Assembly (NCBI GenBank): GCA_963807605.1
Contig: CAWECG010000003.1
Location: 352,001 to 416,000, forward strand
Direction: 5' to 3'
Length of the DNA stretch: 64,000 nucleotides
Origin: Candidatus Bathyarchaeota archaeon
GTDB taxonomy: Archaea; Thermoproteota; Bathyarchaeia; 40CM-2-53-6; RBG-13-38-9
Positions 17,744-48,196 of the stretch are shown in pieces. The notes beneath the pieces are model-generated. The model was not told the DNA's origin, searched no databases, and was given only the letters and a program-made list of their open reading frames with translations. Made by a program: the position numbers and the translations under genes. Each line of letters starts with the position of its first letter. Within the stretch, counting starts at the first letter, position 1.

Positions 17744-17824
17744 GGGCCCGCCCGGAACTGGACCGTTCTTGTAGCTGGTTTTAGAGTCAAATTCACGCGG
17801 GTTTGGCCCTTGCAGGTTCAAACT
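17744..17824 (+). repeat. degenerate att core + arm junction repeat, copy 3 of 3
   Basis: GGGCCCGCCCGGAACTG (compare GGGCCCGCCGGGACTCG at 4474), then N25 and GTCAAATTCACGCGGGTTTGGCCCTTG (compare CTCAAAATTCGTGGAGGTTCGGACCTTG). Confidence 0.6.
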
Positions 17825-17863
17825 ATTCTAGAGATACCAAAGCGCTTATGGTTTACAGGCTCA

Positions 17864-17899
17864 ACGGGATGCGGTCCCGCGATAACGCAAGGGTTCAAC
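17864..17899 (+). repeat. cassette-boundary direct repeat, copy 1 of 4
   Basis: ACGGGATGCGGTCCCGCGATAACGCAAGGGTTCAAC. Confidence 0.85.
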
Positions 17900-18172
17900 A
17901 TTTCTATAGGTGCCCCTCACGAGTCAGAACTCGTGATTCTGAAGTCTCCATGTAGGTACCCAACGCGATCTCGTGTCATTCGGTAGCTATAGGACTATTT
18001 AATGGGAGCCGGTATGGAGCGTGCCCCTTCCTTAGTCTCTGCTCCTAGTCATCCTTCCCCAAGGTTTTGCTGGCACTTCAGCCATACTCAGCCGAGATAA
18101 GAAGGCATATCCGCAAGTTGTCTGAAGTCTTTATGTTATTGATGGTAATATTCCTCCTGGTGCATTATTCCT

Positions 18173-21100
18173 TTGACCGAGGCTCTTAGAGAAACACTAA
18201 CCTGGTTGTTTCTTTGTGCACCCATCATTCAAGAGCTTGGAAGTTCTGTCCTCAAAGACTTAGGAATAGCGCTGTCGGCTGATCAACTACCACACGTAGT
18301 CGAGAAGATAGCTGACCACGTCCGACCTCGAACACCATCAACGATTTTCAAAAGCGCTTTCAAGAAATCGGTAAAGCAACTGAGGAAAAAATGGAAAACA
18401 GAAACTATCAAAGATCTGGACAGAATGACCGAGAACATATGGAAGAATGTACGAGACTTAGTCAACAGTATGACTATCGATGAAATCATTGGTGACAAGC
18501 CGAAAATTATTCTACGACGAGCAATTGAGATCGCAGACGTCAAATTGGATGATGCTGAGTATGAAGAGCTTTTTCTTACTCTGAAACGTGGCCTTTCCGA
18601 CGAAATCGTCTCGCATGAGGATTCATTTCGAGAAATCGTTCTCCAGTCACTACAGGTAATGAATGAAAATCTGAGTCTCACAAGGCAGTTTACAGGGCAA
18701 GGAAGGTTACGAGTGTATCGTTCCCTCGAATCCCTCAAGTTAGGCTTCGATGCTTTGCTCGGTGGACGGATCGAGGTTATAGAAAGGGATGACGCTAGAA
18801 AGCTGGCTGAGGAATTAGCGAAGAAGAAGCTAAAGGTAGTTGTGGAAGGACCACCATTTATTGGAAAGTCATGCGTCGCCTATTTAGTGGCGAAACATTG
18901 GATAGCAAAAGGAAAATCCGTCGCGATGATTCGAGGAGAGATGCTACCGGCAGACATTAAGATTCTTCAAGAAAATCAAGATCTTCTCTTGATTATTGAT
19001 TCCTCTAACTTAGGTCTATCCTGGAGCGATGTGCCCAGTCAAATAGAAATCGCTAACAGAGCTCTAGTGGTGAGAAGGTTTGGAGATCCTCGAGGTATTA
19101 ATGTAAATGATGTCAGAGACTATCTGGATAGTTTCGAGTACACGGCAAATATTTCCGAGAAACTCGGTGTATCCAAGATAAGACTTAGGCTCGGGCAAGA
19201 GCTTCGTATGGATCTCGTGATTGCGTCACTCTCAAAAGAGTTCGCAATAGTGATTAGTGACGAATTAAGTGAAGACTTTTCGAGAATCTGTAAAGGGCCG
19301 GGTTTTGAGCCTATACCCGGATTAGCCAGGCTTCTTTTCATCTTCTTGAAGAAATTAATCGATCAAGGCTCGGTTAGATCCCCTGTCTTGGCTACTGATG
19401 TAGAATACGCAATGATAACTCTCAGCAAGCTATCCAAGTATGAAGCAATGATAAAGCAGTTACTTTCCTGGCTAGGTGATGACATAGTCGACTTTTTGGT
19501 GACTCTCAAGTTTCTGCAACCATACTTAGGCTATTCCAATGTCTTCCTAAAAGAAACGGTAGAATCCACACATCACGCGTATCACAAGAAACCACTTGAA
19601 GAACGGATCCTAAGGGATTTGAAAAGGTTAAGCATTCTCATGGACGTCGGCGACGCCCCCTTCTACTTACTTTGGCATGGTTTTTTGGCGGATGTTGTGG
19701 AGCTGCAAACTTCCCATGCCAAACTTATACTCACAATCAAAGACTTGACCTCCGATTTGGAAAAAATCCTCTCTACAACCCCCACTAACAACCTCCTCAG
19801 ACTAGATACGGGAAGAATCGAGTGGGATGTTGATCCAAAAGAAGCGATACGAAACCTGAAGAGATGTATGACTGTTTTCGAAATTAGATTCGTAGCAGGA
19901 GAATTTCTTGCGGTCAAAATCCTAGATTCTTTAGATCTGGATGATCTCGAAAGGTCTGGAGAGTCGATGCAAAAATACTTTGAACTGCTCGGCGACGATG
20001 AGTATGGAAATGAGATCAAAATCAATGTTTTGAGTACGCTTCCACTGTTGGTCGGCTCAACGAATCTGATAGAGTATCTTGCCCGCGTGAATAAAATCGC
20101 CCTTCACACCATTCAAAAAATGCCAGAGCCCCAAGATGGACTTCATAATTTCTATTCAATGTGTATCGCAAAGATCATTGAATCATCAACCTTAAATGAT
20201 GCAGTTAAAGAGAACTACATCGGCCATGTTGACAACATGGCAATCCAAGCTTTCGAGGGGATTCCAAACCCCGAATCAGGGTTCATGAACTACTTTTCAA
20301 TGCGGATCTCGAAGACAGCAAGCCCGAAAAGTATCAGTTTAGAAAATAAGAAACGCTGGATAAGCTACCTCAACAATAAAGCATTAGAGGTTATCCACAG
20401 AAGATCTAACCCTGACAATATGCTGTGGAACTACTATTCACTGGCTATCTCGCATATAGCTACATCGAAGTTCATCGAGGAACAGGACAAGGATCTGTGG
20501 GTGGCCTATGTAGACAATATGGCAACCCAAGTTTTCAGTAGCTTGCGGAATCCTTTGGAACACTTTTCTAACTACTATTCAATGTGTATCGCAAAGATAA
20601 TTGAACTTACAACCATAGCAAATGAAGATAAGGAGAAATTGACAATTCATTTAGACAGGAAAATCTTCCAGAAAGTCCAAGAGAGACCTAATCCCGAAGA
20701 TATGGTATCAGACTATTATGCTGGGTGCATTATCCATGTAATCGAATCTCAATTGCTCCAGAATGAAGAGAAGGAACAATGGATAAATTGGATCGAGATG
20801 ATGGCTAATAGGACATTCGAGAAAATGACGAATCGGGAAATACTATTCGCCGTCTTCTATTCAATGTCCATCGTAAAGACTGCAGGCTCCCCATTGGTTA
20901 AGGATAAAGACAAGGAAGATTGGGCAGTTAGAATCTTAATTAGGGCAGAAGAAACGGGACACTTTTCAGATATGATGATACTCAAAACACTGACCGAACT
21001 TGCGCTGCACAGGATATCTCTTGACAGTCTTTGGCAGATGATGATAGCGAGAACATTAAGAAAGGAAGAGCTACGATTCTCTCTTGAACTAATGATACAA

Positions 21101-21175
21101 CAATTTGGAGATTATGCAGGTCTCGACACTAGTGAACCCCTAAGAATTGTGAGACAAATGTTCGGTCCTATGTAG
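18173..21175 (+). CDS. large P-loop (STAND-like) NTPase with C-terminal 47-aa helical repeats
   Basis: Walker A VVVEGPPFIGKS, Walker B-like LLLIID, and about six 47-aa repeats (NP.....NYYSMCIAKIIE). Confidence 0.7.
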   Translation: MTEALRETLTWLFLCAPIIQELGSSVLKDLGIALSADQLPHVVEKIADHVRPRTPSTIFKSAFKKSVKQLRKKWKTETIKDLDRMTENIWKNVRDLVNSMTIDEIIGDKPKIILRRAIEIADVKLDDAEYEELFLTLKRGLSDEIVSHEDSFREIVLQSLQVMNENLSLTRQFTGQGRLRVYRSLESLKLGFDALLGGRIEVIERDDARKLAEELAKKKLKVVVEGPPFIGKSCVAYLVAKHWIAKGKSVAMIRGEMLPADIKILQENQDLLLIIDSSNLGLSWSDVPSQIEIANRALVVRRFGDPRGINVNDVRDYLDSFEYTANISEKLGVSKIRLRLGQELRMDLVIASLSKEFAIVISDELSEDFSRICKGPGFEPIPGLARLLFIFLKKLIDQGSVRSPVLATDVEYAMITLSKLSKYEAMIKQLLSWLGDDIVDFLVTLKFLQPYLGYSNVFLKETVESTHHAYHKKPLEERILRDLKRLSILMDVGDAPFYLLWHGFLADVVELQTSHAKLILTIKDLTSDLEKILSTTPTNNLLRLDTGRIEWDVDPKEAIRNLKRCMTVFEIRFVAGEFLAVKILDSLDLDDLERSGESMQKYFELLGDDEYGNEIKINVLSTLPLLVGSTNLIEYLARVNKIALHTIQKMPEPQDGLHNFYSMCIAKIIESSTLNDAVKENYIGHVDNMAIQAFEGIPNPESGFMNYFSMRISKTASPKSISLENKKRWISYLNNKALEVIHRRSNPDNMLWNYYSLAISHIATSKFIEEQDKDLWVAYVDNMATQVFSSLRNPLEHFSNYYSMCIAKIIELTTIANEDKEKLTIHLDRKIFQKVQERPNPEDMVSDYYAGCIIHVIESQLLQNEEKEQWINWIEMMANRTFEKMTNREILFAVFYSMSIVKTAGSPLVKDKDKEDWAVRILIRAEETGHFSDMMILKTLTELALHRISLDSLWQMMIARTLRKEELRFSLELMIQQFGDYAGLDTSEPLRIVRQMFGPM

Positions 21176-21212
21176 ATGTGGTCAGAGAGTTCAGTCACCC
21201 AGTATGACAGAC

Positions 21213-21283
21213 CGACGGGATACTAACCCGCGATAACACATGGGTTAACTTCTTGATCTGAAGTCATCGGAGCAACGCGCGCG
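21213..21283 (+). repeat. cassette-boundary direct repeat, copy 2 of 4 (long form)
   Basis: CGACGGGATACTAACCCGCGATAACACATGGGTTAACTTCTTGATCTGAAGTCATCGGAGCAACGCGCGCG. Confidence 0.9.
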
Positions 21284-21410
21284 ATTCTGTGAGAATTCAT
21301 TAGGATTTTTGAAAGTAGCTTACTCTGTGTCCTTACTGTTGGGTCGATAGCAGCACGCGTGCTCAAAGCGATCGTGATTATGTTTAGACCTGAGATTTCT
21401 TTCTTTATTG

Positions 21411-24400
21411 TCAGTGTAGTATTTGAGCAACTTTAGTTACTTGTTCTGGGTAGAACTTTACAAGCAAGCTACATACAACATCAGCAGCTTCAAGATATTG
21501 CGCACATGGCATAAGAAGTAGTTTGAACTTTTCTCTATTACCTGTTTCGGCAACTGCTTCGGCCACTCTAACCAGATGCGTGGCACGGTCGGTCAAGATA
21601 TTCCCGGTCGTAAGTAATGCCTCCTCTACCAACCCCCTCGTTGCTTGAGCTCTGGCAATTTCTGCAAGAGCCGGAACTCGGAACATTTCATCATCCATAT
21701 GTTTTGCAGCGTTGATCGCCTGTTCGAATTCACCTTTCCTTACGTAGGCTTCTACGATGGGTTCAAAGGAAGATTGCCCAAAGATATGTTCTTGTTTGGC
21801 AATAATGATCGCTTGTTCATACGGACCAATTTCAGCTTGCGCTCTAATGATATCTTTAAAAATCAAAAGACGTTCTAAGTCGCCAGTTCTTTTTGCGTTG
21901 GTGATTGCCTCTTCAAGTAGTCTATTTGCTGCTTCTTTTTGACCTGATTTAGCCTGAGCTACAGCAATATCTACGAGAGCTGAAAGGCGTGATAGCACCC
22001 CATCCATACTTTCTGTAATAGCTGTTGCTTCTCCAAGAAACCTATGCGCGTCATCCTTTCGATTCAGTTCAGCTTGAGCACATGCAATATCTGCAAGAGC
22101 TTCAGCGTGTGACCAGGCGGCACTTATCTGTTTTGCAATGGTGATTGCTTCCTCAAGTAGTCTATTTGCTGCTTCTTTTTGACCTGATTTAGCCTGAGCT
22201 ACTGCAATGTCCGTAAGTGTTAATACTCGTGATGTTGCGTCGTCTATTTGATTCGCCGTATCTACCGCTCGTGCAAACTCATTCATCCGATTCAGGGCCA
22301 CTACGATATTCTTCAAAGTGAAAGTCCGGATCCATTCGTCGCCTATATGTTTCTCGATACTAGCAACTTCCTCAATAGACTCGCGGGCTGCTTCTTTCTG
22401 ACCTGCTTTGGCTTGGGCGGCAGCAATAGATGCGAGGGACGCCGCTCTTTGCGGCTCATTCTCAATAATAGCCGTGGTACTACTCGCTTGCGATAACTCG
22501 TCCGTTTCTGCTTGAGCTATTGCAATGATTGTGAGAGCAGAATCGCGCGACGATGCATCATCTATATTCTTGGCAATTGAGCTTGCTTTCTCAAGAAGCC
22601 GGTGCGCTCCATCTTTTTGATCCAATCTAGCTTGAGCTACGGCAACGAAAGACAAGGCAACTACTCGTGATCGCATATCATCTATTCTTTCTGTAATGGT
22701 GATTGCTTCCTCAAGTAGTCTATTTGCTGCTTCTTTTTGACCTGATTTAGCCTGAGCTACTGCAATGGTTGCAAGAGCCCAACCACGTTCCCCATCATTT
22801 TTTATTTGTTTTGCGGTAGCAATAACTTCTTCAAGAAGCTCACGGGTTCCCACTTTATGATCCAATTCTGCCAAGGAGTTTGAAATGGCATCGATAGCTG
22901 AAGCACGTCCCTTGTCACCATTTATTCGTTCCAAGGTCATAATCACCTGCTCAAACTTACCCACTTTTATTTGAGCTGTTGCGATTTTTTTGAGCGCTGA
23001 GACTCGCCACGGTGCACGGTCTATCATTTCTTCAATCTTAATGGCTTCTTTGAGGAGTCTATCTACCATCTCTTTCTGGTGCTTCCTGGTTTCAGATCCG
23101 GCGATTCGTGCAAGATATGAAACGGTTTCCCATCTGTCAGCTGCCTGTCTTGTGGTGGCGATCGCCTGCTCAATCTCACCTCTGTCTGCCTGAGCCCTTG
23201 CGATGGATTCAAGAATTGCCCTTCGGGCGAAAATCCGTCCCTCTGCTCTATTCTCCTGTTTGGCAATAGTGATCGCCTGGGGAAACTCACCTTTCTTTAC
23301 TAGAACTTCTACGATATCTCCAAGTGCGGAAGACTTTTCCAATTGAGCATCTATCTGTTTTGCAGTTACGATAGCTTGCTCAATCTCACCTCTTTCAGCC
23401 TGGGCTTGGGCCATGAACAAAAGGGTGAGATCCTGCTGGGACCCCATCTCTTTAGCGAAGGCGATCGCTTGTTCAGACTCACCTATCTCTGCTTGAGCCC
23501 ACGCCAAATTTTGAAAAATCAAGTTTCCAGAATGCACATCGTCTATCTGTTTGGCGGTAGCGATAGCTTCTTGGAGGATCTTATGAGCTTCTTCCTTCTG
23601 GCCCGTTCTTGCTTGAGCTTTCGCGATTTCGGCAAAAGCAAAAACTTGAGAATCTTTATCATCTATCTGTTTTGCGTTAGCTATGGCTTCTTCGAGCACT
23701 TTATGCGCTTCTTCGTTCTGGCCTGATCCTGTTTGAGCTTTCGCGATTTCGGCAAGAGCTCTAACTCGTATTACCCCTTTTTCTATTCTACTTGCTGTAG
23801 TAGTTGCTTGCTTAAACTCGCCTCTTCTTATTTGGTCTTCTACGATGGACTCAAAAGCAGAAGATCTTTCCTGCACATCATCTATCTGTGCTGCGGTGAC
23901 CATTGCTTGTTCAAACTCATCCCTTTCCAATTGGATCTTTACGATCGATTCGAGGATTGAGGCCTGAATTGAAACTCGTTTCTGTTCGTCGTTTATCTCT
24001 CTTGCATAGGTAATCGCTTGTTCGAACTCATCCCTTCTTAGTTGAGCCAGTATGACAGATTGAAGAGCGGAAGATCGTTCTACACTATCTATTTGTTTTG
24101 CAGTGGTTATTGCCTGCTTAAACTCGCCCATTTCTGCTTGAGTGTCTACGATGCTTGAAAGAGCGGATGATCGTTTCCACTTATCGTGTATCTGTTTCGC
24201 GGTGCCAATAGCTTCTTCAAGAAGCTCACGGGCTTCCTCTTTGCGGCCTAATGCTGCTAGGGCTTTTGCAATGTCAGCGATAGCTGAAGCACGTTTCGTT
24301 AGGTCTTCTATTTGTTTTGCAGTGGTTATTGCCTGCTTAAACTCGCCCATTCTAAACTGAGCTTCTGCTATGCCTGTGAGTGCAAAAGCACGGTGCCATT

Positions 24401-27400
24401 CATTATCAATCTGTTTTGCCAGAGTGATCGCATGCCCGACGTCGCCTTTTTTCATGAGCATTCTTGCAATTGAAGCAAAAACTGAGGGCAAGCTTGAAGC
24501 CCACACCATTTGGTTGTCTATTTGACTCACGGCGGCAATTGCTTGGTCAAACTTACCTTCTCTTGCTTCAGTCTCTGCAATACCTGCGAGAGCCCAACCA
24601 CGCCTCCAATCATCTTCTATTTGTTTTGCAGTGGTTATTGCCTGCTTAAACTCGCCCATTTCTGCTTGAGTGTCTACGATGCTTGAAAGAGCGGATGATC
24701 GTTTCCACTTATCGTGTATCTGTTTCGCGGTGCCAATAGCTTCTTCAAGAAGCTCACGGGCTTCCTCTTTGCGGCCTAATGCTGCTAGGGCTTTTGCAAT
24801 GTCAGCGATAGCTGAAGCACGCGATCTCTTATCATCAATCTGCTTTGCATTAGCCAAAGCCTTTAGAAGGAAGCTGCCAGCAACCTCACCCTCGCCCAAT
24901 TCTACCATGGCTTCAGTTACATCTGCAAGAGTCATGGTGCCTTCCGCTGTGTCAAGTAATTGCCTTACAGCGGCGATAGCTTCTTCAAGAAGCTCACGGG
25001 CTTCCTCTTTGCGGCCTAATGCTGCTAGGGCTTTTGCAATGTCAGCGATAGCTGAAGCACGCGATCTCTTATCATCTATCTGTTTTGCATTAGCTATGGC
25101 TTCTTCGAGCACTTTATGCGCTTCTTCCTTCTGGCCTGATCCTGTTTGAGCTTTCGCGATCTTTACTAGAGTTGAAACTCGTGGCTCTTTGCTATCGATT
25201 CGTCCAGCAGTAGCGATAGCTCGCTCAAACTCCATCTTCTCGATGTAAGCTTTTGTGACGGATTCAAATGCCAGTTCACGGGCTGGTTCGTCATCTGCCT
25301 GATCTATGGTGGCTATAGCCTCCTCAAGCTTACCCTCTTTTATATGAGCTACTACAATGCTGTGAAGAGCTGAAGCTTGCCAAGATTCTTCATGCGCTAT
25401 CCTTGCCAACTTTACAGCTTTGCCAAAGAGTGCGGGAGTTGACAGATACTTTGTGTTGGTACTTGACTGCAAATCGCCTAGTAGGCTCTTGACGAGTTCA
25501 GAAATAACATCGGACTGAATATCATGCAGCTTAAGTAACAGGCAGAAAGCACATAAACCCTGCCACCCTGATAGGCTCGTAAGTTCTTTAAGACTTAGAC
25601 GCTCAAGCGTTTGGATCGCTTGATTGTTAAGCCTTTTTTCTTTCAGCGCCCAAGCTAACAGCAAATACCATAGGCTGCAGTATTCAATTTCTAACAAGTC
25701 GGCCAACTGCCAAGCTCGCTGCAGGTTTCCCATCCTTAGAGCTTGCAAGGGAGTCTCCTCAGTAGTTCCAAGCTTCTGTCTGGCATGTAGTATTGAGAAT
25801 TCCACCATACTCGCTGCGTCATCACTTCTAATAGCGGCAACGAGCGCCATCTGAATAGTTCGTAAGGTGACAGTCGGTTCGTCAATCAGAGTCTCTTTTT
25901 GCGCTGATGCAAAGGCATTATCTCTTGCAAGTTTGTAAAGAGCATCGATTTGATTCTCTTCCAGCAAATGCTCTGCATAATGTCTCATTGCATAGCTGCT
26001 TTTGCTCTCTCTCCAGTTGGCACAGTATTCTAGTAGTTTCTGACGATAGCTTTGTGCGTCTCTTTCACTGAAGGCATAACGTCGGTATCCCTCAGCAATC
26101 GCAGAATGAGAATAAAAGTAGAAATTTAGGTTATTCTCTCTTTCTATGGTTAGCCACCTTCTCACTTCCCATGGCAGGCTAACAAAATCCCGTTTGCGAA
26201 GCCCTGTTAGCTCCATAAGATCACTTTCAGAAAGTCGGCTCTTCGCAAATGCTAGTATGCATAAAGCTTCATCCCACTCCTGCCGTACCTTGCCAGCATT
26301 GGCAATTTGAGCCACGAAGTCTTCGAATTTGGACGGCAGCTTGTCGATTATTTCTCTCCAATGTTGTTCATTTGTCTGCTTGAGTTCTTCTGTCAGATGT
26401 CGGAGATAGATGGCTAATCCACCTGTGATTTTCAATAGTTGGCTGACAAATGCAGCATCTTCTGCTTTTGTCTTGAGTCTCTCGTTTCCAGATATCAGCA
26501 GAAGTTCTTTTACTGCAGCAGCGCCCAGCTCAGGTAGAAGGAAGTTCTTCATGGATTGCAGGCCTAGCTGGTCACACAATTTCCGTGTTGTAGCCTCACC
26601 TTCTGTGGCACGTGCTGTGAATATCACTACTGAATTTTCGCCCAATGTCTCAGGAAACAGGCCTTTTCGGAAGGCAAACTCACCGGGGTGTTGCGCATCG
26701 CGCGCTTCGTCTAGCCCATCGACAATAATGACTAATCTTGAAGGATGAGGGTTCGAAAGCACACTGGTGATTATTGCACGCAGTTTCAGCGGTTCGCTTT
26801 CCCATATCTCACCAGTCATGTTATGAACACGTAAAAGCTGTTCACTCAAACATGCAAGAAAGCCGTTGAAATCTTCCGTGCCCCACTTGGAACTAAGAAA
26901 GTGGTAGCACATCTTCAAATCATTTTTTTGTGATGCCAGGGAATTCAGCCAGTGCGCCATAAGGGAAGACTTGCCACCACCAGCAGGAGACGTGGTCAAA
27001 AGGTAACCAGTACCTGAAAGCACGAATTGATTCAGCCTAAAAATTGAATCCTCCCGACCGACAAACGGTGTCCTTTCGGTCAATTCACGCAGTACGCGCT
27101 CATCATGCTGTCGTCGCCTATACTCTACAGTCTCCCCCTCTTGTATAAACCGCCCACTAGTCAGTTCTTTCAGATCTTCGATCGTATGTGCTATCCTGTT
27201 AAGTGCCTCTGATCGCTCATGACTGATCTCCTCCATGCGGCTAATCCCTTCATGGACCAACGACAGCAATTGGACAACTGACTGAGCAAGTTGCGCAAGA
27301 AGACTAGGCACAGTCGCCAGAGTATTCAGCCTAAGCTTCAATTCATCAAACTCCTGTCGCTGTTCTTCAGTAAGGTCGGTCAAACGTATTTTCAACTTGT

Positions 27401-28085
27401 CAAGCAATTCCACGGTTTGGAGTAAGAATGAGCGTTGAAAATCGATCCAAGCTCGGCTATATTGCGGATTTTTGATGATTTCAGCCAGTGACGTCTCTAG
27501 GTTTTGCAGGAGGTTGTCCTTTAGGAAGTTGCGCAAGCCTTGGGGCATGGTCTGTACGCCACCCCAGGTGAGCAGCATCTGTTCAGTTAAGCGCCACTGC
27601 GACTCTTCTGCGTCTTCTCCATTTGCCATTGTCAGAATTTCATTGAGCTTCAAATCTCCCAAAAAGAACTCGTCGAGTGTCTGCTCATCGTGTTTAGCTT
27701 GCTTCAACTTGTTAAGCCATACGTCAAAGAGGCGCTCCTCCATATCGGTGAGCCGCTTGCTTCGAACCAAGCGCTTTTTGACTCCTTGCTTGGCTCGAAA
27801 TTCTTTTCGCTTGTTTCTGATTGCCATTGATAGAGCTGCTGCCATGGCTCGTTGAATATCATGATTTGGGGGTACCGAAATCTCCTTGGCAAGATCTTCA
27901 ACAAGATCGGCAGAGATTCCGCTGAAGATGCCGGCACCTGCTTGGGCATAGCCTTCTATTATCATGCTCAGTGCTCCACCAGCCAAATTGCCCAAGATGC
28001 TGCCGATGGGACCGACAGCTGCAGCGCAACTCACTGAAGCGATCAATCTGAGCGCATTTCGAAAGGAGTAATGCACAGATCTCAC
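21411..28085 (-). CDS. NACHT/STAND NTPase with a very long TPR-like solenoid (NLR/Avs-like), 2224 aa
   Basis: FVGRE, Walker A SPAGGGKS, Walker B IIVDGLDE, GGLAIYL, wHTH YSH..IAE, then about 1300 aa of A...AKQIDD...R..AL..IA repeats. Confidence 0.85.
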   Translation of the reverse strand: MRSVHYSFRNALRLIASVSCAAAVGPIGSILGNLAGGALSMIIEGYAQAGAGIFSGISADLVEDLAKEISVPPNHDIQRAMAAALSMAIRNKRKEFRAKQGVKKRLVRSKRLTDMEERLFDVWLNKLKQAKHDEQTLDEFFLGDLKLNEILTMANGEDAEESQWRLTEQMLLTWGGVQTMPQGLRNFLKDNLLQNLETSLAEIIKNPQYSRAWIDFQRSFLLQTVELLDKLKIRLTDLTEEQRQEFDELKLRLNTLATVPSLLAQLAQSVVQLLSLVHEGISRMEEISHERSEALNRIAHTIEDLKELTSGRFIQEGETVEYRRRQHDERVLRELTERTPFVGREDSIFRLNQFVLSGTGYLLTTSPAGGGKSSLMAHWLNSLASQKNDLKMCYHFLSSKWGTEDFNGFLACLSEQLLRVHNMTGEIWESEPLKLRAIITSVLSNPHPSRLVIIVDGLDEARDAQHPGEFAFRKGLFPETLGENSVVIFTARATEGEATTRKLCDQLGLQSMKNFLLPELGAAAVKELLLISGNERLKTKAEDAAFVSQLLKITGGLAIYLRHLTEELKQTNEQHWREIIDKLPSKFEDFVAQIANAGKVRQEWDEALCILAFAKSRLSESDLMELTGLRKRDFVSLPWEVRRWLTIERENNLNFYFYSHSAIAEGYRRYAFSERDAQSYRQKLLEYCANWRESKSSYAMRHYAEHLLEENQIDALYKLARDNAFASAQKETLIDEPTVTLRTIQMALVAAIRSDDAASMVEFSILHARQKLGTTEETPLQALRMGNLQRAWQLADLLEIEYCSLWYLLLAWALKEKRLNNQAIQTLERLSLKELTSLSGWQGLCAFCLLLKLHDIQSDVISELVKSLLGDLQSSTNTKYLSTPALFGKAVKLARIAHEESWQASALHSIVVAHIKEGKLEEAIATIDQADDEPARELAFESVTKAYIEKMEFERAIATAGRIDSKEPRVSTLVKIAKAQTGSGQKEEAHKVLEEAIANAKQIDDKRSRASAIADIAKALAALGRKEEARELLEEAIAAVRQLLDTAEGTMTLADVTEAMVELGEGEVAGSFLLKALANAKQIDDKRSRASAIADIAKALAALGRKEEARELLEEAIGTAKQIHDKWKRSSALSSIVDTQAEMGEFKQAITTAKQIEDDWRRGWALAGIAETEAREGKFDQAIAAVSQIDNQMVWASSLPSVFASIARMLMKKGDVGHAITLAKQIDNEWHRAFALTGIAEAQFRMGEFKQAITTAKQIEDLTKRASAIADIAKALAALGRKEEARELLEEAIGTAKQIHDKWKRSSALSSIVDTQAEMGEFKQAITTAKQIDSVERSSALQSVILAQLRRDEFEQAITYAREINDEQKRVSIQASILESIVKIQLERDEFEQAMVTAAQIDDVQERSSAFESIVEDQIRRGEFKQATTTASRIEKGVIRVRALAEIAKAQTGSGQNEEAHKVLEEAIANAKQIDDKDSQVFAFAEIAKAQARTGQKEEAHKILQEAIATAKQIDDVHSGNLIFQNLAWAQAEIGESEQAIAFAKEMGSQQDLTLLFMAQAQAERGEIEQAIVTAKQIDAQLEKSSALGDIVEVLVKKGEFPQAITIAKQENRAEGRIFARRAILESIARAQADRGEIEQAIATTRQAADRWETVSYLARIAGSETRKHQKEMVDRLLKEAIKIEEMIDRAPWRVSALKKIATAQIKVGKFEQVIMTLERINGDKGRASAIDAISNSLAELDHKVGTRELLEEVIATAKQIKNDGERGWALATIAVAQAKSGQKEAANRLLEEAITITERIDDMRSRVVALSFVAVAQARLDQKDGAHRLLEKASSIAKNIDDASSRDSALTIIAIAQAETDELSQASSTTAIIENEPQRAASLASIAAAQAKAGQKEAARESIEEVASIEKHIGDEWIRTFTLKNIVVALNRMNEFARAVDTANQIDDATSRVLTLTDIAVAQAKSGQKEAANRLLEEAITIAKQISAAWSHAEALADIACAQAELNRKDDAHRFLGEATAITESMDGVLSRLSALVDIAVAQAKSGQKEAANRLLEEAITNAKRTGDLERLLIFKDIIRAQAEIGPYEQAIIIAKQEHIFGQSSFEPIVEAYVRKGEFEQAINAAKHMDDEMFRVPALAEIARAQATRGLVEEALLTTGNILTDRATHLVRVAEAVAETGNREKFKLLLMPCAQYLEAADVVCSLLVKFYPEQVTKVAQILH
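24088..24821. repeat. identical ~206-bp intragenic duplication (24088-24293 and 24616-24821)
   Basis: Two blocks offset by 528 bp that match by eye; a third partial copy lies near 24976-25080. Confidence 0.85.
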
Positions 28086-28250
28086 CTTCTATCCAGAAAC
28101 TGCCCTTATAGCTGCACTGCGATATTTCGCAGTTCTAGAATAAAACTCATGACTCTTTTCATGACATATAAAACAATGGCTCTCACTATCCGTGCTAGAG
28201 CCCGCCAGACGGCATAGGCGAAAATGGCACACCTTCTGATATGGAGAACT

Positions 28251-28289
28251 CGACGGGATACTAGCCCGCGATAACGCAAGGGTTCAACT
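28251..28289 (+). repeat. cassette-boundary direct repeat, copy 3 of 4
   Basis: CGACGGGATACTAGCCCGCGATAACGCAAGGGTTCAACT, 14 nt from the stop codon of the HAD gene. Confidence 0.9.
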
Positions 28290-28303
28290 ACCAGAGTGTC
28301 CAT

Positions 28304-29020
28304 TCACTTGGAGCTTCCAGATAAACCTCGGTTAAGGTCGCTTCGTTGTCTCATTTCTTGGAACAATCTAGTCCTTTTGAGATCAGATATATGTGGGATG
28401 ATGGCATCAACGTAATTTTGACTGTTTTCAACAATACATCGTAGTCTCTCTTCGACTAGAATAGATCTCATGTTAAGAATTGCACCGCCAAGTATGTCAG
28501 TTCTTATCTTGTCGCCAACAACGACCGCATTTTGCGGCGTGATTTTGAGCTTGTCTAAAGCCAGTTTGAAGATTCTTGGGTCTGGTTTCAAATATCCTAC
28601 GTCACACGAAAAAATAATTACTTCAAATCGTTCCCGGAGTTCTAATAAGTCCAATATATAGTGGCTGGTGGGCGGGGTATTTGAAATTAGGGCTAATTTC
28701 ATTCCTTCGCCGCGCAAATCGTCGAGGATTTCCGATGCCCCAGGCTCAAGCTTAGCATGTTGGACGCTATTCATCCAAGCTGTTTGAACTTTGTGGCTGA
28801 GAGCCGCATCCCCCATTGGATTTACAACTCGATCGAAACGTTTTAGGAAATCTTGCATATTCTGTCTCGGGAATTTGTCGCAGAGTCTGTATATCACAGA
28901 CCTTACTTGTTCTGTACTAGCATACTCAAGAAGTTCAGCCAGACAGCGCTCCTCGTCAAATTCGTCCGGAATTGACATCAAAGTATTCCCAAGATCGAAT
29001 ATCCAAGCGGAGATTCCCAT
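28304..29020 (-). CDS. HAD-superfamily hydrolase
   Basis: FDLGNTL, LISNT, KPDPRIF, VGDKIRTDI. Confidence 0.9.
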   Translation of the reverse strand: MGISAWIFDLGNTLMSIPDEFDEERCLAELLEYASTEQVRSVIYRLCDKFPRQNMQDFLKRFDRVVNPMGDAALSHKVQTAWMNSVQHAKLEPGASEILDDLRGEGMKLALISNTPPTSHYILDLLELRERFEVIIFSCDVGYLKPDPRIFKLALDKLKITPQNAVVVGDKIRTDILGGAILNMRSILVEERLRCIVENSQNYVDAIIPHISDLKRTRLFQEMRQRSDLNRGLSGSSK

Positions 29021-29021
29021 A

Positions 29022-30185
29022 TCACCATCTTCCTGCTAGATTGGTCTTGAAAATAAACCTCATCACTCGCATTGTTGCACGTTCGATAAGTTGACGAGCG
29101 TTTGTTATCGATTCTTCAAGTGAAATGGGGCCCTCAGAAATACATTCCACTGCGTCAATTCCATTATAGAAGATGTCCTCATGATCAAGAGCTATCGAGC
29201 CGACGATGGCTATCACGGGCAAGTCATATTTCTTTGCCTTAAGTGCAACTCCGCAAGCAATCTTGCCAGTCGCAGTCCGGTCATCGATTCGACCTTCTCC
29301 TGTTAGGACAAGGTCTGTTTGAGACAGATAACGGTCTAGATGAACATATTGGTCTACTACATCTATGCTGTAGAGGAGACGTGCACCAAAAAAAGCATAT
29401 AGTGACGCTGCAAGTCCTCCCGCACCTCCCGCCCCCGGGATAAAAGACAGATCAATCCCGCGTTCCTTGAAGACCAAATCAACGAAATGGTCCACTCCTC
29501 CAGATAAGAGGGACACTTGTTTTGGAGTGGCTCCTTTCTGAGGAGCATAGACTCGGCTGGTTCCCTCGGGTCCACATAGGATGCTAGTTAGGTTACATGC
29601 CACAGTGATCTCTACGTCAGAAAGCTTCTTGGCAGCATCAGCATAATCAATTCGCATTACATTGTTCAGATCAGATCCTGTCGGGAAGCTCAACGGCCTT
29701 GCACTTCTATTAGAATAGAATTTGACACCAAGTGCAGTCGCGCACCCAATGCCGCAGTCATTTGTAGCGCTATCTCCACATCCAACAATAATTCTTCTTG
29801 CACCGCCTTCGATTGCTTTGCTAATTAGCTGTCCAACCCCAAAGGTAGATGTCAGAAGTGGATCACGTTTGTTCCTCGGGACGAGAGATAATCCAGCAGC
29901 AGTTGCGCTCTCGACTATTGCTGATTCTCCATCTCCCAAAAATCCAAAATAGGAGTCTATCTCTTCTCCGAGCGGATCCTTTACTTTAACATTTTCTAGG
30001 CGTCCTCCTGTAACCTCTGTCAGGAGTCTCGCTATGCCAGAGCCTCCGTCAGAAAGTGGTCGGACAGTTACAGAGGCAGTAGGAACGATCTCCTCCACGC
30101 CGGTCTTCATTGCCTTGGCGACTTCGAAGGAACTGAGGCATTCTTTGTAGGGTCCAGGTGCAACAAGAATGTTAGAAAGATCCAT
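29022..30185 (-). CDS. glxK: glycerate kinase (GlxK/GarK family)
   Basis: APGPYKECLS, PLSDGGSG, STFGVGQLI, GDSATNDCG, YAPQKGA, GAGGAGGL, TGEGRID. Confidence 0.85.
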   Translation of the reverse strand: MDLSNILVAPGPYKECLSSFEVAKAMKTGVEEIVPTASVTVRPLSDGGSGIARLLTEVTGGRLENVKVKDPLGEEIDSYFGFLGDGESAIVESATAAGLSLVPRNKRDPLLTSTFGVGQLISKAIEGGARRIIVGCGDSATNDCGIGCATALGVKFYSNRSARPLSFPTGSDLNNVMRIDYADAAKKLSDVEITVACNLTSILCGPEGTSRVYAPQKGATPKQVSLLSGGVDHFVDLVFKERGIDLSFIPGAGGAGGLAASLYAFFGARLLYSIDVVDQYVHLDRYLSQTDLVLTGEGRIDDRTATGKIACGVALKAKKYDLPVIAIVGSIALDHEDIFYNGIDAVECISEGPISLEESITNARQLIERATMRVMRFIFKTNLAGRW

Positions 30186-30187
30186 AT

Positions 30188-30952
30188 CTACTGTCGATCC
30201 ATGTGTTTGACAACAAACTTCTCTGCGTCATCAAAGTCAGACGGGACATTGATGTTACACACAGGAATATCGACAATCCGAGAATAGACTGTAATACCCG
30301 AAAGAACCATTGCCTTGAGTATCAAGATCCATCCAGTTTGAAATGGCTTCAAATTATCTGGCACACTGTCCTTTGTTATGGGTTTAGGCAATATCTTCCT
30401 TATTTTTGCAAGGGATCGTTTTGTCAAAATTAGTAATACACGTTCAAAACTAGTTTGTGTGTCTTTCTTGTTGATATCGTTTAGGCAATTGTCCTTAACA
30501 ATGAACTCCCATTTCTTGTGGCCAGGTTTTGGGAGCTCAACAAACAGGGCTGTATCATGCTTCTCGTTCTTAGAGAAGTCGCTCAGGACTTCCCTGACAG
30601 CTCTTTTTGGCACAAGAACATCTGAGCTCATTCCAAGGAATGCTTCCGCAGAGTCCTCTTCTGCCACTTCAAAGACTGATTCTGCCATCGTCCTATTTGG
30701 CAAGTTGCGGAATTCGACATTATCTCTTTCGAAGAAGGCACGTATGAGCTCGCCTTTGTAGTCAATTGCGATTATTGGTCTCAACATTCCGGTGCCCAAT
30801 AACGAGTTAAGTGCGTACCAAAGGATTGGCCTTCCGCTCACTGGTAACAGTGGTTTAGGAAGGTCGTAGGTTCTCGGTCTAAGCCGGGTGCCAAGACCAC
30901 CCGCCAAAACAATAGGGCGTATCTTGTTCCCAGTATGCTTGCCTACTGTCAT
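30188..30952 (-). CDS. sugar-phosphate nucleotidyltransferase family protein
   Basis: LAGGLGTRLRPRTYDLPKPLLPV; C-terminal NINVPSDF. Confidence 0.85.
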   Translation of the reverse strand: MTVGKHTGNKIRPIVLAGGLGTRLRPRTYDLPKPLLPVSGRPILWYALNSLLGTGMLRPIIAIDYKGELIRAFFERDNVEFRNLPNRTMAESVFEVAEEDSAEAFLGMSSDVLVPKRAVREVLSDFSKNEKHDTALFVELPKPGHKKWEFIVKDNCLNDINKKDTQTSFERVLLILTKRSLAKIRKILPKPITKDSVPDNLKPFQTGWILILKAMVLSGITVYSRIVDIPVCNINVPSDFDDAEKFVVKHMDRQ

Positions 30953-31626
30953 AGTTCCATTTCTTCACCAAAACCTAAGACACAAGCCTTGATTCCGTAT
31001 CTGTTTGCCTTCTCTGCAAATTCCTTTGGATCAACTCGATCTTTGTCTTTGGGTGAATCGTAGTGTAGCGGAATTACTAACAATGGTTTTAGCTCGCTAG
31101 CAAATACGAGCGCATCGTCAATCCCCATCACCACTCCACGGTCAGATATGGGCACAAAAAGATATTTCGTCCGAGTTTCCTCAGGAAGCAGCGATGGGTC
31201 CATGAATCGAGTGTCGCTTGTATAGTAAATACTGGTCCCATCTGCCGATATGACCAAACCAAAATTGGCTATATTCTCGCCCCTTACTACGTGGTCGGTC
31301 TTTGTCGCTGTAAGGGTGAATCCTGCCTCCACAATCTTAGTTCCTTCCACTATCACTTTTGAGTCTATTCCTTCATTATGCAAAATCTTGTCGATTTCCG
31401 AATTTGTGAGGATTACAGGCTTACTCCTGGACAAGATTGACTTTAACAACTCGAGGTCGAAATGATCAGCATGCTTGTGGGTAATTGCAATTACATCTGC
31501 AATTGGGAAATCTTTTGAAGTCACCCTACCTGGATCTAAGTTATACTTGCCTGGATCAATCAAGAGTCGTCTGCCCGTTTGCGCAGTGAGCAGAACGGTG
31601 CTTTGTGCAAGCCGCCTAAGTTTCAA
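30949..31626 (-). CDS. MBL-fold metallo-hydrolase
   Basis: IDPG, THKHADH, YTSDT, IPLHY. Confidence 0.9.
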   Translation of the reverse strand: MKLRRLAQSTVLLTAQTGRRLLIDPGKYNLDPGRVTSKDFPIADVIAITHKHADHFDLELLKSILSRSKPVILTNSEIDKILHNEGIDSKVIVEGTKIVEAGFTLTATKTDHVVRGENIANFGLVISADGTSIYYTSDTRFMDPSLLPEETRTKYLFVPISDRGVVMGIDDALVFASELKPLLVIPLHYDSPKDKDRVDPKEFAEKANRYGIKACVLGFGEEMEL

Positions 31627-31813
31627 GTATTGACCCCCTTTCCATCATGCCTGTTATTAATCTGTGCACTGAAGTTCATATAACTTTAGCATAGCTCTTC
31701 GTCTCGACCTCTCGTCTTTTCATCCTGTATTGTACATAAGCTCAAAGAGATTGAGTCAGAAAAGCCAAATTAGTAGAGAAGCTGTTCGAGTTCTTCACAT
31801 GTCATGTTTCAGG

Positions 31814-31881
31814 GGGGTACTAACCCGCGATAACGCATGGGTTTAACTTCTGAATCTGAAGTCATCGGAGCAACGCGCGCG
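31814..31881 (+). repeat. cassette-boundary direct repeat, copy 4 of 4 (long form)
   Basis: GGGGTACTAACCCGCGATAACGCATGGGTTTAACTTCTGAATCTGAAGTCATCGGAGCAACGCGCGCG. Confidence 0.9.
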
Positions 31882-33066: not shown

Positions 33067-33128
33067 ATAGTCCTAAGCCAAATGCAAGTTGGCAAGTTAC
33101 TGAGCCATCATTGTGCGAGGAGACGAAT

Positions 33129-33545
33129 ATGAAAGATGACCTTAAGGGGTATATGTTCAAAGAAGTGGAGATAATCCAGAGTATCATAAGGCGAATGGCT
33201 TCAAATTCTTTCTTGGTAAAGGGATGGACGATAACTCTAGTTGCAGTGACCCTCTTATTCAAAGGAACAAGATATCACGTGTTTATCGCCTTCATTCCCC
33301 TGATAGCTTTCTGGTATCTGGATGCATACTTCTTGTGGCAGGAGAGACTCTATAGGAAATTGTACGAATGGGTGATTAACAACAGACTGAAAACTGACCA
33401 GTATTTGCTCGATATGAATGCCTACAGATTTAGAGATGAAGTCGAGTCGGTTCCAAGAATCATGCGATCTCTGACGTTGGGGCTATTCTACGGCTTGCTA
33501 GGAATGTTAACGGTAATATACATAATTGTTCTTATCTTGGTGTAG
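33129..33545 (+). CDS. multi-TM membrane protein, TIR-associated putative effector
   Basis: IQSIIRRMASNSFLVKGWTITLV...FWYLDAYFLWQERLYRKLY; about 3 TM segments; ends 14 nt before the TIR gene. Confidence 0.7.
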   Translation: MKDDLKGYMFKEVEIIQSIIRRMASNSFLVKGWTITLVAVTLLFKGTRYHVFIAFIPLIAFWYLDAYFLWQERLYRKLYEWVINNRLKTDQYLLDMNAYRFRDEVESVPRIMRSLTLGLFYGLLGMLTVIYIIVLILV

Positions 33546-33559
33546 AGAGCGGATGTTGA

Positions 33560-34009
33560 ATGGCAAGACGAGTGTTTTTCAGTTTCCATTATGAGAAGGA
33601 TGCATGGCGAGCCAGCCAAGTTCGTAACAGCTGGGTGACGAAACCTGACAGAGATGCTGCTGGGTTTTTAGACGCTGCTGATTGGGAACAAGTGAAGAGA
33701 GGTGGGGAGAACGCGGTAAGAAGCTGGATTGATAAGCAGCTGGAAGGCACGTCCGTGACGGCAGTTCTTATTGGAGCTGAAACTGCCAACAGGGAATACG
33801 TGTTGTATGAAATAGATCAAAGCTACAAAGAACGACATGGATTACTAGGAATCTACATACACAATCTTAAGGATCAGTATGGCAAGACAGACTACAAGGG
33901 CTCTAATCCTTTGTCCAGCATTTACCCCACGTATGACTGGGTAAGTGATAATGGATACGAAAGATTTGCTGAATGGGTAGAAAGGGCGGCAACGGACGCC
34001 GGAAGATGA
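33560..34009 (+). CDS. thsB: ThsB-like TIR domain protein (DUF1863)
   Basis: RRVFFSFHYEKDAWRASQVRNSW, IDKQLEGTSVTAVLIG, catalytic Glu in YVLYEI. Confidence 0.85.
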   Translation: MARRVFFSFHYEKDAWRASQVRNSWVTKPDRDAAGFLDAADWEQVKRGGENAVRSWIDKQLEGTSVTAVLIGAETANREYVLYEIDQSYKERHGLLGIYIHNLKDQYGKTDYKGSNPLSSIYPTYDWVSDNGYERFAEWVERAATDAGR

Positions 34010-39895: not shown

Positions 39896-41149
39896 ATGTC
39901 CCTAACAGATATTTCAGGCAGAGGGTTATGTGATTGTGTGAATCTCAAGAACAAAATCTATGGGTACGAGAAGAAAATTGAGAACATCTTAAGAAGAATT
40001 AAGGAGTCATCTATAAACGATGATAGTAAGGAGAAAATCCTAGAATTTTATGATGAACTTCTGGCTCAAGGCTACAGTAAAGCGAGAATAGTAAAGTACC
40101 TAGATACTCTGTGCAGAATTGCCGTCATGTTGGGCAAGCCCTTTGTTGAGGCAAACAGGGACGATATCGCATGTTTCGTTCGTAAGATCGAAGCAAAAGA
40201 TTACTCTGAATGGACAAAGCACGACTACAAGGTCATTCTGAAATTATTCTACAGATGGCTCAGGAAGGCCGAAGAGTATCCGGAAGAAGTTAGATGGATT
40301 AAACCGAGAATAAAGAACAACAACCTCTTACCTGACGGACTTCTAACAGAGGAGGAGATCAAAGGCCTGGCTGAGGCAGCGGGTAACCCAAGAGATAGGG
40401 CACTAGTTCTGGTACTCTATGAATCCGGCTGCAGAATCGGAGAGATCCTTTCCCTAAGTATCAAGAACGTCCAGTTCGATGAGTATGGTGCCCAATTGAT
40501 AGTCAGCGGAAAAACAGGCTCAAGAAGGGTAAGAATAATCTTCTCAGCCCCAAGACTTGCTCAATGGATTGAAAACCATCCATTAAGAAATGACCCCGAT
40601 GCTCCTCTCTGGGTCAGCTTGGGCACAAGAGATAGGAATGAGGCCTTAACGTATGGCGCTGCGAAATCAGTAATCAAGGACCTCGCTTCAAAAGCGAACA
40701 TCAGAAAGCGCATTTATCCACATCTTTTCAGGCACTCCAGAGCCACCTACCTCGCAAATCACCTAACAGAGGCTCAGATGAAGCACATGTTCGGCTGGGT
40801 CCAGAGCTCGAAAATGGCAGGCACCTATGTCCACCTCTCCGGAAGAGATGTTGATAAACCGCTACTGAAATTGAGCGGAATAAGATCTGATTACGAACAA
40901 GAGTCTAAAGAATTTCAGATTAGATTTTGTCCCCGGTGCAAGACAAGGAACTCGCCGGATTCCAAATTCTGCAATTCCTGTGGCCTTTGCTTTGATGTGA
41001 AGAGCACCGTGCAAATCGATGAGATGAGAGAGAAAGCTGATAGATTGATGACGGAACTTGTGAAACAACCTGAAGTCTTGGCTGTTCTTCTTAAAGCCCT
41101 TGAGAAATCCGAGAGATCAAGCCTTGACACGAAATCCCATGAGATATAG
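39896..41149 (+). CDS. tyrosine recombinase/integrase with C-terminal zinc ribbon
   Basis: LYESGCRIGE (R), GKTG (K), HLFRHSRAT (HxxR), FGW (W), TYVH (Y); CPRC...CNSC. Confidence 0.95.
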   Translation: MSLTDISGRGLCDCVNLKNKIYGYEKKIENILRRIKESSINDDSKEKILEFYDELLAQGYSKARIVKYLDTLCRIAVMLGKPFVEANRDDIACFVRKIEAKDYSEWTKHDYKVILKLFYRWLRKAEEYPEEVRWIKPRIKNNNLLPDGLLTEEEIKGLAEAAGNPRDRALVLVLYESGCRIGEILSLSIKNVQFDEYGAQLIVSGKTGSRRVRIIFSAPRLAQWIENHPLRNDPDAPLWVSLGTRDRNEALTYGAAKSVIKDLASKANIRKRIYPHLFRHSRATYLANHLTEAQMKHMFGWVQSSKMAGTYVHLSGRDVDKPLLKLSGIRSDYEQESKEFQIRFCPRCKTRNSPDSKFCNSCGLCFDVKSTVQIDEMREKADRLMTELVKQPEVLAVLLKALEKSERSSLDTKSHEI

Positions 41150-41206: not shown

Positions 41207-42310
41207 ATGGTAGAAACTCTTGACCAGAGAATAAGCAGAAGGAGATTTTTGAAGTACAGTGGAGCGGCTGTTGTGGCTGCCGGTGCTGCCGCTCTAGGGG
41301 TGTATGAATATTCTGAGTACTATAAGCAAGCAACAGTGAGCCCAATTCCAACTGCTAGCTCGACAATTACACCTACTCAAACTCCTACTCCGACCTCTAC
41401 CACTCAAGAGAAACTTCTTTATTTAGCTGGAAAAATACTTTACAATGAAAAAGGAAATGGAATCCAAAGTCCAAGTGATTCAAAGCTTGCCGATGCACCA
41501 TTTCGATTAATAGATAATACGGGAAAAATCACTTCTACTACAACCAACTCAGCTGGCGAATATAGATTTGATGTCCCTCGTGAAAATTATTCTCTACAGA
41601 TTTATGCTAGGGGAAAATATTGGGCGATGTGTCACTCTAAGAATGATGTAGCACCTGCATGGGGTCCATATGATGAGTGTGGTTATCCAATTAAGTTGCG
41701 TGAAGACCAAGAAGGTGTGGACTTCGGGGTCATGGAAGGAATTTTAACTCAACCAGTAAGTGAGGGGACTAAATTCCATATAGACAGATATTATGATTGG
41801 GACCCTAGACCGGCAACATCATTGTGGTGGGATGGGACTGTTGGAAATGATCCATGGAATCATGATGGAATTGATTATGGTATGGATGAAGGTAAAGATC
41901 TTCTTGCAATGGCTCCTGGTAATGTTACAGGAGTAATAACTAACAAACAAGGCCTCGGAGTTGCGTTAAATCATTATGCTAACATTTACACGATATATGG
42001 ACATATAAGCAAAGCATTAGTTAAAGAAGGTGATTCTATATCAAGAGGACAAAAGATTGCAGAATCAGGAAAAACAGGTGTAGATTATCCACACACACAC
42101 GTTAGCCTTTTTTCAATGGGACTACCCATTACGTTTTTCGATCCTTACCACCCCATATTTAAGATGGAACCTCTCTTCAATGGTTATTGGATTAATGATG
42201 GAGAATTTGAAGAATATGGACAGAAATGGGTAGACTGTAACGGAAGAGATAATCCTAACCTTGATTATCCAAACTTTTGGACAAAATTTAATAAACCAGT
42301 ATTTGCATAG
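41207..42310 (+). CDS. Tat-exported M23 family metallopeptidase
   Basis: SRRRFLK + hydrophobic helix, Thr/Pro linker, Ig-like segment, NHDGIDY (HxxxD), YGHIS, GQKIAESGKTG, PHTH (HxH). Confidence 0.88.
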   Translation: MVETLDQRISRRRFLKYSGAAVVAAGAAALGVYEYSEYYKQATVSPIPTASSTITPTQTPTPTSTTQEKLLYLAGKILYNEKGNGIQSPSDSKLADAPFRLIDNTGKITSTTTNSAGEYRFDVPRENYSLQIYARGKYWAMCHSKNDVAPAWGPYDECGYPIKLREDQEGVDFGVMEGILTQPVSEGTKFHIDRYYDWDPRPATSLWWDGTVGNDPWNHDGIDYGMDEGKDLLAMAPGNVTGVITNKQGLGVALNHYANIYTIYGHISKALVKEGDSISRGQKIAESGKTGVDYPHTHVSLFSMGLPITFFDPYHPIFKMEPLFNGYWINDGEFEEYGQKWVDCNGRDNPNLDYPNFWTKFNKPVFA

Positions 42311-42406
42311 TCAAGAATTAAATTAGCGCGCGCTATGCGGCGCTCAGGAGGCACTGCAACGGTAATTCTATCCGTCGGTAAAGTACATGCTTAGCTGCTG
42401 CTTCCT

Positions 42407-42652
42407 TTGTACATGAGATGTTCTATTTGCAGAAAAGAAATAATAGGCACAGCATTTTGGCTCGATGGAAAACCAATATGTGGCGACTGTTGCTATAGGT
42501 ATTCGCCAAAAAATCGAAAACCCAAGTCAGGAGATAATCCATACATTACCCGAGAAGATAGTCCTGACGACTACTCGAAGGAGTATGATACACAAGAAGA
42601 GTCCGTGGAGGAGTTGTCTTACTCTGATGAAGGAAATGAAGTCGAATCGTAA
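42407..42652 (+). CDS. small zinc-finger protein with acidic tail
   Basis: CSIC...ICGDC. Confidence 0.5.
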   Translation: MYMRCSICRKEIIGTAFWLDGKPICGDCCYRYSPKNRKPKSGDNPYITREDSPDDYSKEYDTQEESVEELSYSDEGNEVES

Positions 42653-42797
42653 TTCCTTCTTTTGTATGCTTGTCGAAGGACCCTGAACCACTCTGGCATT
42701 TTCTCAAGTGTTACCTCATCTATGTCCTCGTAGAGAATTTGCAGCAGCTCCATGTTATGATCCCTCAGTTTGCTTTCTCAGCAATGGCACCATTGCC

Positions 42798-46268: not shown

Positions 46269-46384
46269 AATGCGAGTTCTTTGAAGTTAGCGACCATTGT
46301 TATCTGCCCTATTCATGATTTGGGAATTGTCGGAAGTCATATCCTTCGATAAGACAGATTTGAATTCGTTAACATCCATCTGTA

Positions 46385-48185: not shown

Positions 48186-48196
48186 GGAGTGGTTCA

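Follow-up and report, generated by a model that had tools for sequence, protein, structure and literature searches.

Co-oriented tRNA-like repeats as putative attachment sites around integrase-less gene units in a bathyarchaeal genomic island

Four repeats separate three gene units

The subject of this study is a 64,000-nucleotide (nt) stretch of a Candidatus Bathyarchaeota archaeon genome (assembly GCA_963807605.1, contig CAWECG010000003.1, positions 352,001 to 416,000; the window), in which four short repeats, A1 to A4, separate three unrelated gene units. On balance we think it probable that these repeats are attachment (att) sites of integrative elements that target tRNA genes. A repeat search returned them as one family of direct copies (D10; 17860-17899, 21211-21250, 28249-28288 and 31808-31847), 70-88% identical to the reference copy. 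Their 20-nt core, CCCGCGATAACRCAWGGGTT, has exactly four matches in the window, all on the plus strand, and none in 100 shuffles of the sequence; the whole 2.65-Mb assembly holds no match besides these four, all in one island. A first-pass annotation had described four co-oriented repeats of about 36 bp, intergenic and with one unit per interval. The repeat search, the exact core count and the shuffles agree with the first part of that description, and the map of open reading frames (ORFs) and our annotation of the three intervals with the second: every copy is intergenic.

Read on the minus strand, A1 (17852-17899) has the form of a pseudo tRNA-Lys(CUU) 3′ half, GTTGAACCC-TTGCGTTATC-GCGGG..CCCGT, followed by a decayed acceptor. 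A2 (21208-21283, minus) and A4 (31809-31881, minus) each include an arm that they have in common, about 35 nt long and 93% identical over 42 nt (family D16), as had been noticed earlier for copies 2 and 4. In A2 the arm carries an ACTTC/GAAGT hairpin and ends in CGCGCGCG, and in A4 the GGG of the T-arm-like part is mutated. A3 (28241-28289, minus) retains a terminal CCA in its acceptor-like part. The CGCGCGCG motif was rejected as a general feature of the site because it is present in only 3 of 110 right flanks and is thus subfamily-specific. A search of the genome with a profile of the site recovers, besides these, one half-site and, on another contig, one degenerate copy; the relics on contig C4 (465159-465191 and 12538-12567) are a half-site that follows the A consensus until CCCTCGAT and then loses it, and a degenerate full copy.

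Unit 1 (18173-21175, plus) is a single gene for a 1000-amino-acid (aa) P-loop protein with a weak STAND-type match. It has no homologue among the 104 other genomes of the order, and about six copies of a 141-nt (47-aa) repeat run through it at 20147-20879. Unit 2 (21411-28085, minus) encodes a 2224-aa NACHT and TPR (STAND_TPR) protein. Unit 3 (28304-31626, minus) is a four-gene operon for an MBL-fold hydrolase, a nucleotidyltransferase, a glycerate kinase and a HAD hydrolase. Judged by its gene content this operon is metabolic and not a known defence system, and PADLOC returned no match to it; its glycerate kinase has no homologue among the same 104 genomes, and the operon was probably acquired from outside the group. 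The cargo had been described as defence cassettes, a label that fails for unit 3, and the cargo is not all defence.

The site resembles the 3′ half of a tRNA gene

On the minus strand the A copies read GTTRAACCC, then WTGCGTTATC, then GCGGG-loop-CCCGT and a decayed acceptor. From the anticodon loop to the T-stem this strand can be aligned with the intron-bearing tRNA-Lys(CUU) gene of the same genome (C3:610580-610697), except that the variable loop is replaced by an insert foreign to tRNA (WTGCGTTATCG). The site is about 45-60 bp long and consists of an anticodon-loop/stem-like end (GTTRAACCC), a box, a T-arm-like hairpin and an acceptor-like tail; the T-loop is non-functional, and the site ends in GGGTTCAAC or GGGTTAGAAAG. 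When the site profile was run on this genome, the next-best matches were real tRNA 3′ ends, and many copies in related genomes carry a perfect acceptor with CCA.

The conserved non-tRNA box of about 10 nt is TGCGTTATCG, or CGATAACGCA on the plus strand. The CGATAACGCA block is near-invariant among 109 distinct instances, with CCC and GGGTT on either side. The window's copies have hardly any changes in the box and the T-arm-like part, against 3-8 per copy in the acceptor 12-mer, which argues that the box, rather than the tRNA tail, is the part maintained in these sites.

The core had been proposed to fold as a hairpin with an AACCC/GGGTT stem, a proposal that the present data do not bear out. 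Positions K14 and N25 beside the block lack complementarity across the 109 instances (commonest pairs T/C 33, G/C 31 and T/T 20). Predicted folds of the window's copies have z-scores of -0.2 to -1.4, and three of the four favour the T-arm-like hairpin instead. With neither covariation nor a fold signal, the site behaves as a sequence-specific double-stranded site and not as a folded one. Reading the core by eye, we make out two imperfect 9-nt inverted arms around ATAACG, a possible weak 9-6-9 dyad.

Rfam finds no family in the window and, at two tRNA-like loci, a T-arm match or nothing; ARAGORN at default settings calls no tRNA in the window or in the loci, and settings that tolerate introns were needed. 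Most tRNA genes of this genome bear introns, some at unusual positions, so that default tRNA finders miss genes and may mislabel the anticodon. A tRNA-like 3′ end at C3:750759-750830 has a perfect T-arm, acceptor and CCA and is called by neither ARAGORN nor Rfam; the region before its T-arm (CCCTCGAATATCGTGGGTT, plus strand) resembles the A-site box.

Distribution, arrays and joints

Of 105 genomes from this Bathyarchaeia order, 11 have the site when three mismatches are allowed; with at most one core mismatch, 7 of the 105 have it, and so does none of 296 genomes from other orders of the class. Scanning metagenomes yielded 108 stretches with the site, nearly all of which show a flanking GGGAT motif. 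Matches in bacterial genomes are single, lack that motif and look like chance, and the core was not matched in IMG/VR viral contigs. As far as sequence matches go, a single order of Bathyarchaeia accounts for the element family in all the genomes searched. A scan of this and related genomes for arrays with other cassette content had been suggested as a check, and the searches of related genomes and metagenome contigs did find arrays with diverse cargo.

Between neighbouring sites we measured 38 intervals, from 58 nt to 7 kb. Site orientation is never mixed and genes run either way. The smallest units are a toxin-antitoxin pair or just 58-80 nt; toxin-antitoxin cassettes are frequent, some units are multi-gene operons, and no transposases were found in the units. 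The 61 interval proteins are diverse and include radical SAM enzymes, methyltransferases, AbiEii, an ABC transporter, PolB, CHAT and HAD proteins. At one metagenome locus (L082:2019-2190) three A sites fall within 170 nt with only their own acceptor-like tails between them, and look like 'empty' units.

An intact target tRNA stands at the end of an array of copies co-oriented with it in four cases (G008:C17, L118, L120 and L011). On G008:C17 three sites follow tRNA-Lys(CUU): a MazE/PIN pair separates the tRNA from the first, a 6.3-kb unit the first from the second, and a PIN pair the second from the third. The tRNA of L118 is Arg(UCU) in our own parse; ARAGORN calls it Pro, and Rfam recognises only its T-arm. 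Going by these sequences, the elements appear to target genes of the tRNA-Lys(CUU) and tRNA-Arg(UCU) types, the latter by our parse.

Flank comparisons among 127 instances locate the joints. Pairs that have only the left flank in common diverge at +30 to +43, and pairs with only the right flank in common at -2 to +14, which indicates that unrelated DNA is joined at the site and that the repeats are recombination joints. The same comparisons extend the earlier expectation of breakpoints in gene content at the repeats, with heterogeneous integrase-less units, to many related genomes and metagenome contigs. Locus L095 equals L058 minus one two-gene unit of 2.4 kb and has a hybrid site in its place, an empty site for a single unit. 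A cassette of 115- and 90-aa genes abuts the real tRNA in L118; in L109, L112 and L143 its neighbour is a site, and the unit beyond that site is different in each of the three, the pattern that serial insertion at one point gives.

Integrases near the sites

The tyrosine recombinase noted earlier beyond the last copy is present: a 417-aa protein with a C-terminal zinc ribbon (39896-41149, plus; PF00589, E 3.8e-19), 8 kb from the window's array and a candidate enzyme for the sites. In another genome of the set (G002) a fragment of its homologue lies about 90 nt from an A site, on the acceptor side. The acceptor side of an att site is the canonical place of an element's integrase, and a few other sites have full integrases there (L069 and L115) or fragments of them (L019, L026 and L072). 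Of the intervals, 36 exceed 300 nt (97 kb together); tblastn searches with nine integrases found no integrase or fragment in them but do match integrases elsewhere in the loci. A split integrase of the SSV type was considered and rejected, because the window's sites have no integrase fragments beside them and the variable positions of the site show no period of three.

The surrounding island

The array lies within a 65-kb island. At its inner end is an intact tRNA-Lys(UUU) gene (C3:421410-421529, minus), beyond the window, and its outer boundary is B1, an exact 17-nt copy of the tRNA-Lys(UUU) 3′ end (4470-4486, minus). On contig C30 of a genome of the same genus (G001), the gene to the left of 4470 and tRNA-Lys(UUU) are about 160 nt apart, as against 65 kb here, which makes the whole 65 kb (4470 to C3:421529) an insertion and the G001 locus its empty site.

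B1 belongs to a second att family (B), which marks older units up to 17824. The last of these, B4 (17744-17824, minus), combines a degenerate tRNA-Lys(UUU) 3′ end at 17744-17757 with an arm of its own of about 80 nt and lies 36 nt from A1; it explains the att-like junction previously noticed near the first copy and, from its sequence and position, is likely the attR of the element of about 52 kb to its right. The arm of B1 (4487-4510) contains TGCGTTAT, the 8-mer of the A-site box, in the opposite orientation relative to the tRNA tail; this 8-mer has only 58 occurrences in the genome.

The 52 kb or so from B4 to tRNA-Lys(UUU) open with the A array. There follow a ThsB/PDC-M50 pair, a pair of genes for a phosphoesterase and a GHKL ATPase, the integrase, and then the element's backbone. 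The first of these pairs (33111-34009) matches the PADLOC candidate system PDC-M50 (A and B), its second gene encoding a ThsB-like TIR protein. The backbone (41207-53542) is plasmid-like or resembles that of an integrative and conjugative element (ICE), and comprises an M23 peptidase, an Orc1/Cdc6-like ATPase, ParB, a DNA methylase and a HerA/VirB4-like ATPase. In other genomes A sites directly adjoin homologues of the M23 peptidase and of a neighbouring gene.

On the far side of tRNA-Lys(UUU) from the island, a 466-aa tyrosine integrase (C3:421537-422937) starts 8 nt from the tRNA's 5′ end and could be a resident enzyme that serves the B-type sites. The N-terminus of a homologue is found at the end of contig C78 in G001, despite the lack of an island there.

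Interpretation and alternatives

We suggest that the arrays were built by serial site-specific insertion. A tyrosine integrase would recombine a site-bearing DNA circle with a tRNA gene or with a resident site; each such insertion would shift earlier units outward and add one co-oriented site. Since most units have no integrase, they would depend on an enzyme supplied in trans, much as bacterial cis-mobilizable elements (CIMEs) and integrative mobilizable elements (IMEs) do. The window's four-site array would then be old cargo at the distal end of the 52-kb plasmid/ICE-like element, which in turn is the innermost of the insertions piled up over 65 kb at tRNA-Lys(UUU). We infer that the exchange is site-specific rather than homologous, and likewise the crossover position, the supply in trans and the choice of acting integrase.

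Several observations weigh against serial site-specific insertion. The box is without counterpart in tRNA. In the window the association of array end and tRNA holds for the B family and tRNA-Lys(UUU) only: the four A copies are not beside tRNA-Lys(CUU), and the gene at C3:610580 has no adjoining site. Breakpoints are spread, some at the border of acceptor and T-stem and others just left of CGATAACG; such scatter also fits homologous exchange or two different enzymes, and homologous exchange may lie behind some of the events. No contig is circular and no locus has terminal overlaps. Across the order no integrase family tracks the site: of the three families mapped (that of the window's integrase, the L115 type and the type adjoining tRNA-Lys(UUU)), members occur in 3 of 9, 2 of 11 and 4 of 11 site-bearing genomes, and two are about equally common in site-free genomes, evidence that is weak because the genomes are incomplete metagenome-assembled genomes (MAGs).

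The strongest rival is a graveyard, in which once autonomous elements integrated at the tRNA and then lost their own integrases, there was no mobilisation in trans, and the sites are dead scars. Post-integration loss of integrases is documented in archaea (PMC8371274), and the decayed acceptor parts of the window's copies, the integrase fragments that adjoin sites at three loci and the full integrases in canonical position at two others are what this history would leave. It accounts poorly for the lack of even an integrase fragment in all 36 complete intervals and for units as small as a toxin-antitoxin pair or 58-80 nt. An almost intact box and T-arm-like part next to so many acceptor changes is likewise unexpected of neutral scars of equal age. 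We regard a pure graveyard as possible and rather unlikely.

The first-pass annotation had leaned towards an integron-like platform. In its full version, attC-like sites would fold as single strands and one specialised recombinase would capture and shuffle promoterless cassettes. Small integrase-less units bounded by one conserved co-oriented site recall such a platform, as do the strongly conserved box and the frequent toxin-antitoxin cassettes, which are also common in chromosomal integrons. The would-be pairs, however, do not covary and the fold signal is absent; there is no GTTRRRY motif, genes lie in either orientation and often in multi-gene operons, and array ends have no consistent recombinase. 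The site is moreover tRNA-derived and arrays begin at tRNA genes. We consider this version very unlikely.

That the repeat is a regulatory or RNA element (a terminator, a small RNA or a tRNA-like processing signal) lying between genes by chance is scarcely credible. A tendency of genes to converge on the site does favour it: 61 of 94 right-hand neighbours have their ends there, at a median distance of 69 nt. Against it, the repeat belongs to no Rfam family, has weak fold z-scores and no consistent orientation relative to the window's genes, is a joint between unrelated stretches of DNA, and has only four good copies in the genome, all in one island. A promoter role was rejected on the same inconsistency of orientation.

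Serial site-specific insertion admits a bolder extension, which we put forward tentatively and hold to be improbable: an archaeal functional analogue of the integron, in which a trans-acting tyrosine recombinase would capture, stack and reshuffle integrase-less cassettes through a tRNA-mimicking double-stranded site with the dedicated recognition box ATAACGCA, at tRNA genes as well as within plasmid/ICE-like elements of this order. If units do move in trans, cassette stacking would have evolved a second time, independently of integrons.

Repeated insertion of foreign genes at a defined site of about 50 bp would account for the arrival of defence and metabolic genes that single genomes alone possess. 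The examples here are two giant STAND proteins and the operon with the glycerate kinase; of these, the kinase and the 1000-aa protein were checked against 104 related genomes and are absent from all of them. Bathyarchaeia are among the most abundant archaea of sediments, and we know of no genetic system for them; the site offers a concrete substrate for tests of archaeal integrases and for integration tools.

Comparison with known systems

Ends of IS200/IS605 elements or of miniature inverted-repeat transposable elements (MITEs) occur as dispersed copies, come as paired ends and are associated with TnpA or TnpB. Here the four good copies sit in one locus and one orientation and the units contain no transposase, which speaks against the dispersed repeat or transposon end that had been named as the outcome fatal to a capture system.

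Sites of the pdif/Xer type are 28 bp long with an 11-6-11 layout, are related to the chromosomal dif site and flank modules as inverted pairs. These modules and the related integrative mobile elements exploiting Xer (IMEX) are like the present units in that short sites bound DNA that lacks a recombinase, and the weak 9-6-9 dyad recalls their layout. They differ in that the sites described here are co-oriented in all 38 intervals and derive from tRNA. The host has a XerA-like protein (C3:769377-770351); mimicry of dif for XerA was rejected because the chromosome holds no further dif-like copy elsewhere, and the suggestion of a dif- or pdif-like site fails on these grounds.

The attC site of integrons is imperfectly palindromic, folds in single-stranded form and has R″/L″-L′/R′ boxes and a GTTRRRY motif; IntI and attI stand at the head of an array of mostly single-ORF cassettes in one orientation. 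Integrons have been reported in archaeal MAGs (PMC9668308). The present arrays resemble them as series of recombinase-less cassettes, many of them toxin-antitoxin pairs, split by one kind of site. They differ in having neither an attC fold nor R′/R″ boxes nor an adjacent IntI, in their mixed gene orientation and in some multi-gene units, and the attC-like reading of the site is abandoned accordingly. No integrase stands consistently at array ends; no specific test for the extra domain of IntI was made.

Tandem 'gene capture' arrays at tRNA genes were reportedly described by She et al. in 2001-2004. The att sites of archaeal tRNA integrases share with our site a repeat that copies the 3′ part of a tRNA from anticodon loop to acceptor, co-oriented arrays that start at an intact tRNA, an empty site in a relative and, at some sites, an integrase on the acceptor side. 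Here, in contrast, the T-loop is non-functional and a 10-nt box foreign to tRNA stands where the variable loop would be. Most units are without a cognate integrase: none of the 36 intervals holds one, and only a few sites adjoin one. In this genome, moreover, the array is no longer at its cognate tRNA but is carried within another element. Archaeal integrases are known to use tRNA 3′ parts spanning anticodon loop and T-loop, to integrate in tandem and often to lose their genes (PMC8371274, PMC6563490). The system had been called undescribed, which goes too far: a tRNA-3′-half att site is a known type (PMC8371274), as is the tandem re-use of one site (PMC6563490). What is new is a tRNA-mimic att site with a conserved extra box around integrase-less units; the process is already known.

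In streptococci CIMEs and IMEs accrete site-specifically with ICEs at tRNA genes (PMC5704250), and Dehalococcoides has tandem islands at ssrA (PMC3146451). As in the window, att sites of a family of integrative elements delimit their units, which lack recombination genes of their own and are stacked at one site beside a plasmid/ICE-like element. The differences are the archaeal host, the often much smaller units (down to a single toxin-antitoxin pair) and a mobilisation in trans that is here only proposed. By analogy of organisation, the bacterial CIMEs and IMEs are the closest functional parallel to the bathyarchaeal arrays.

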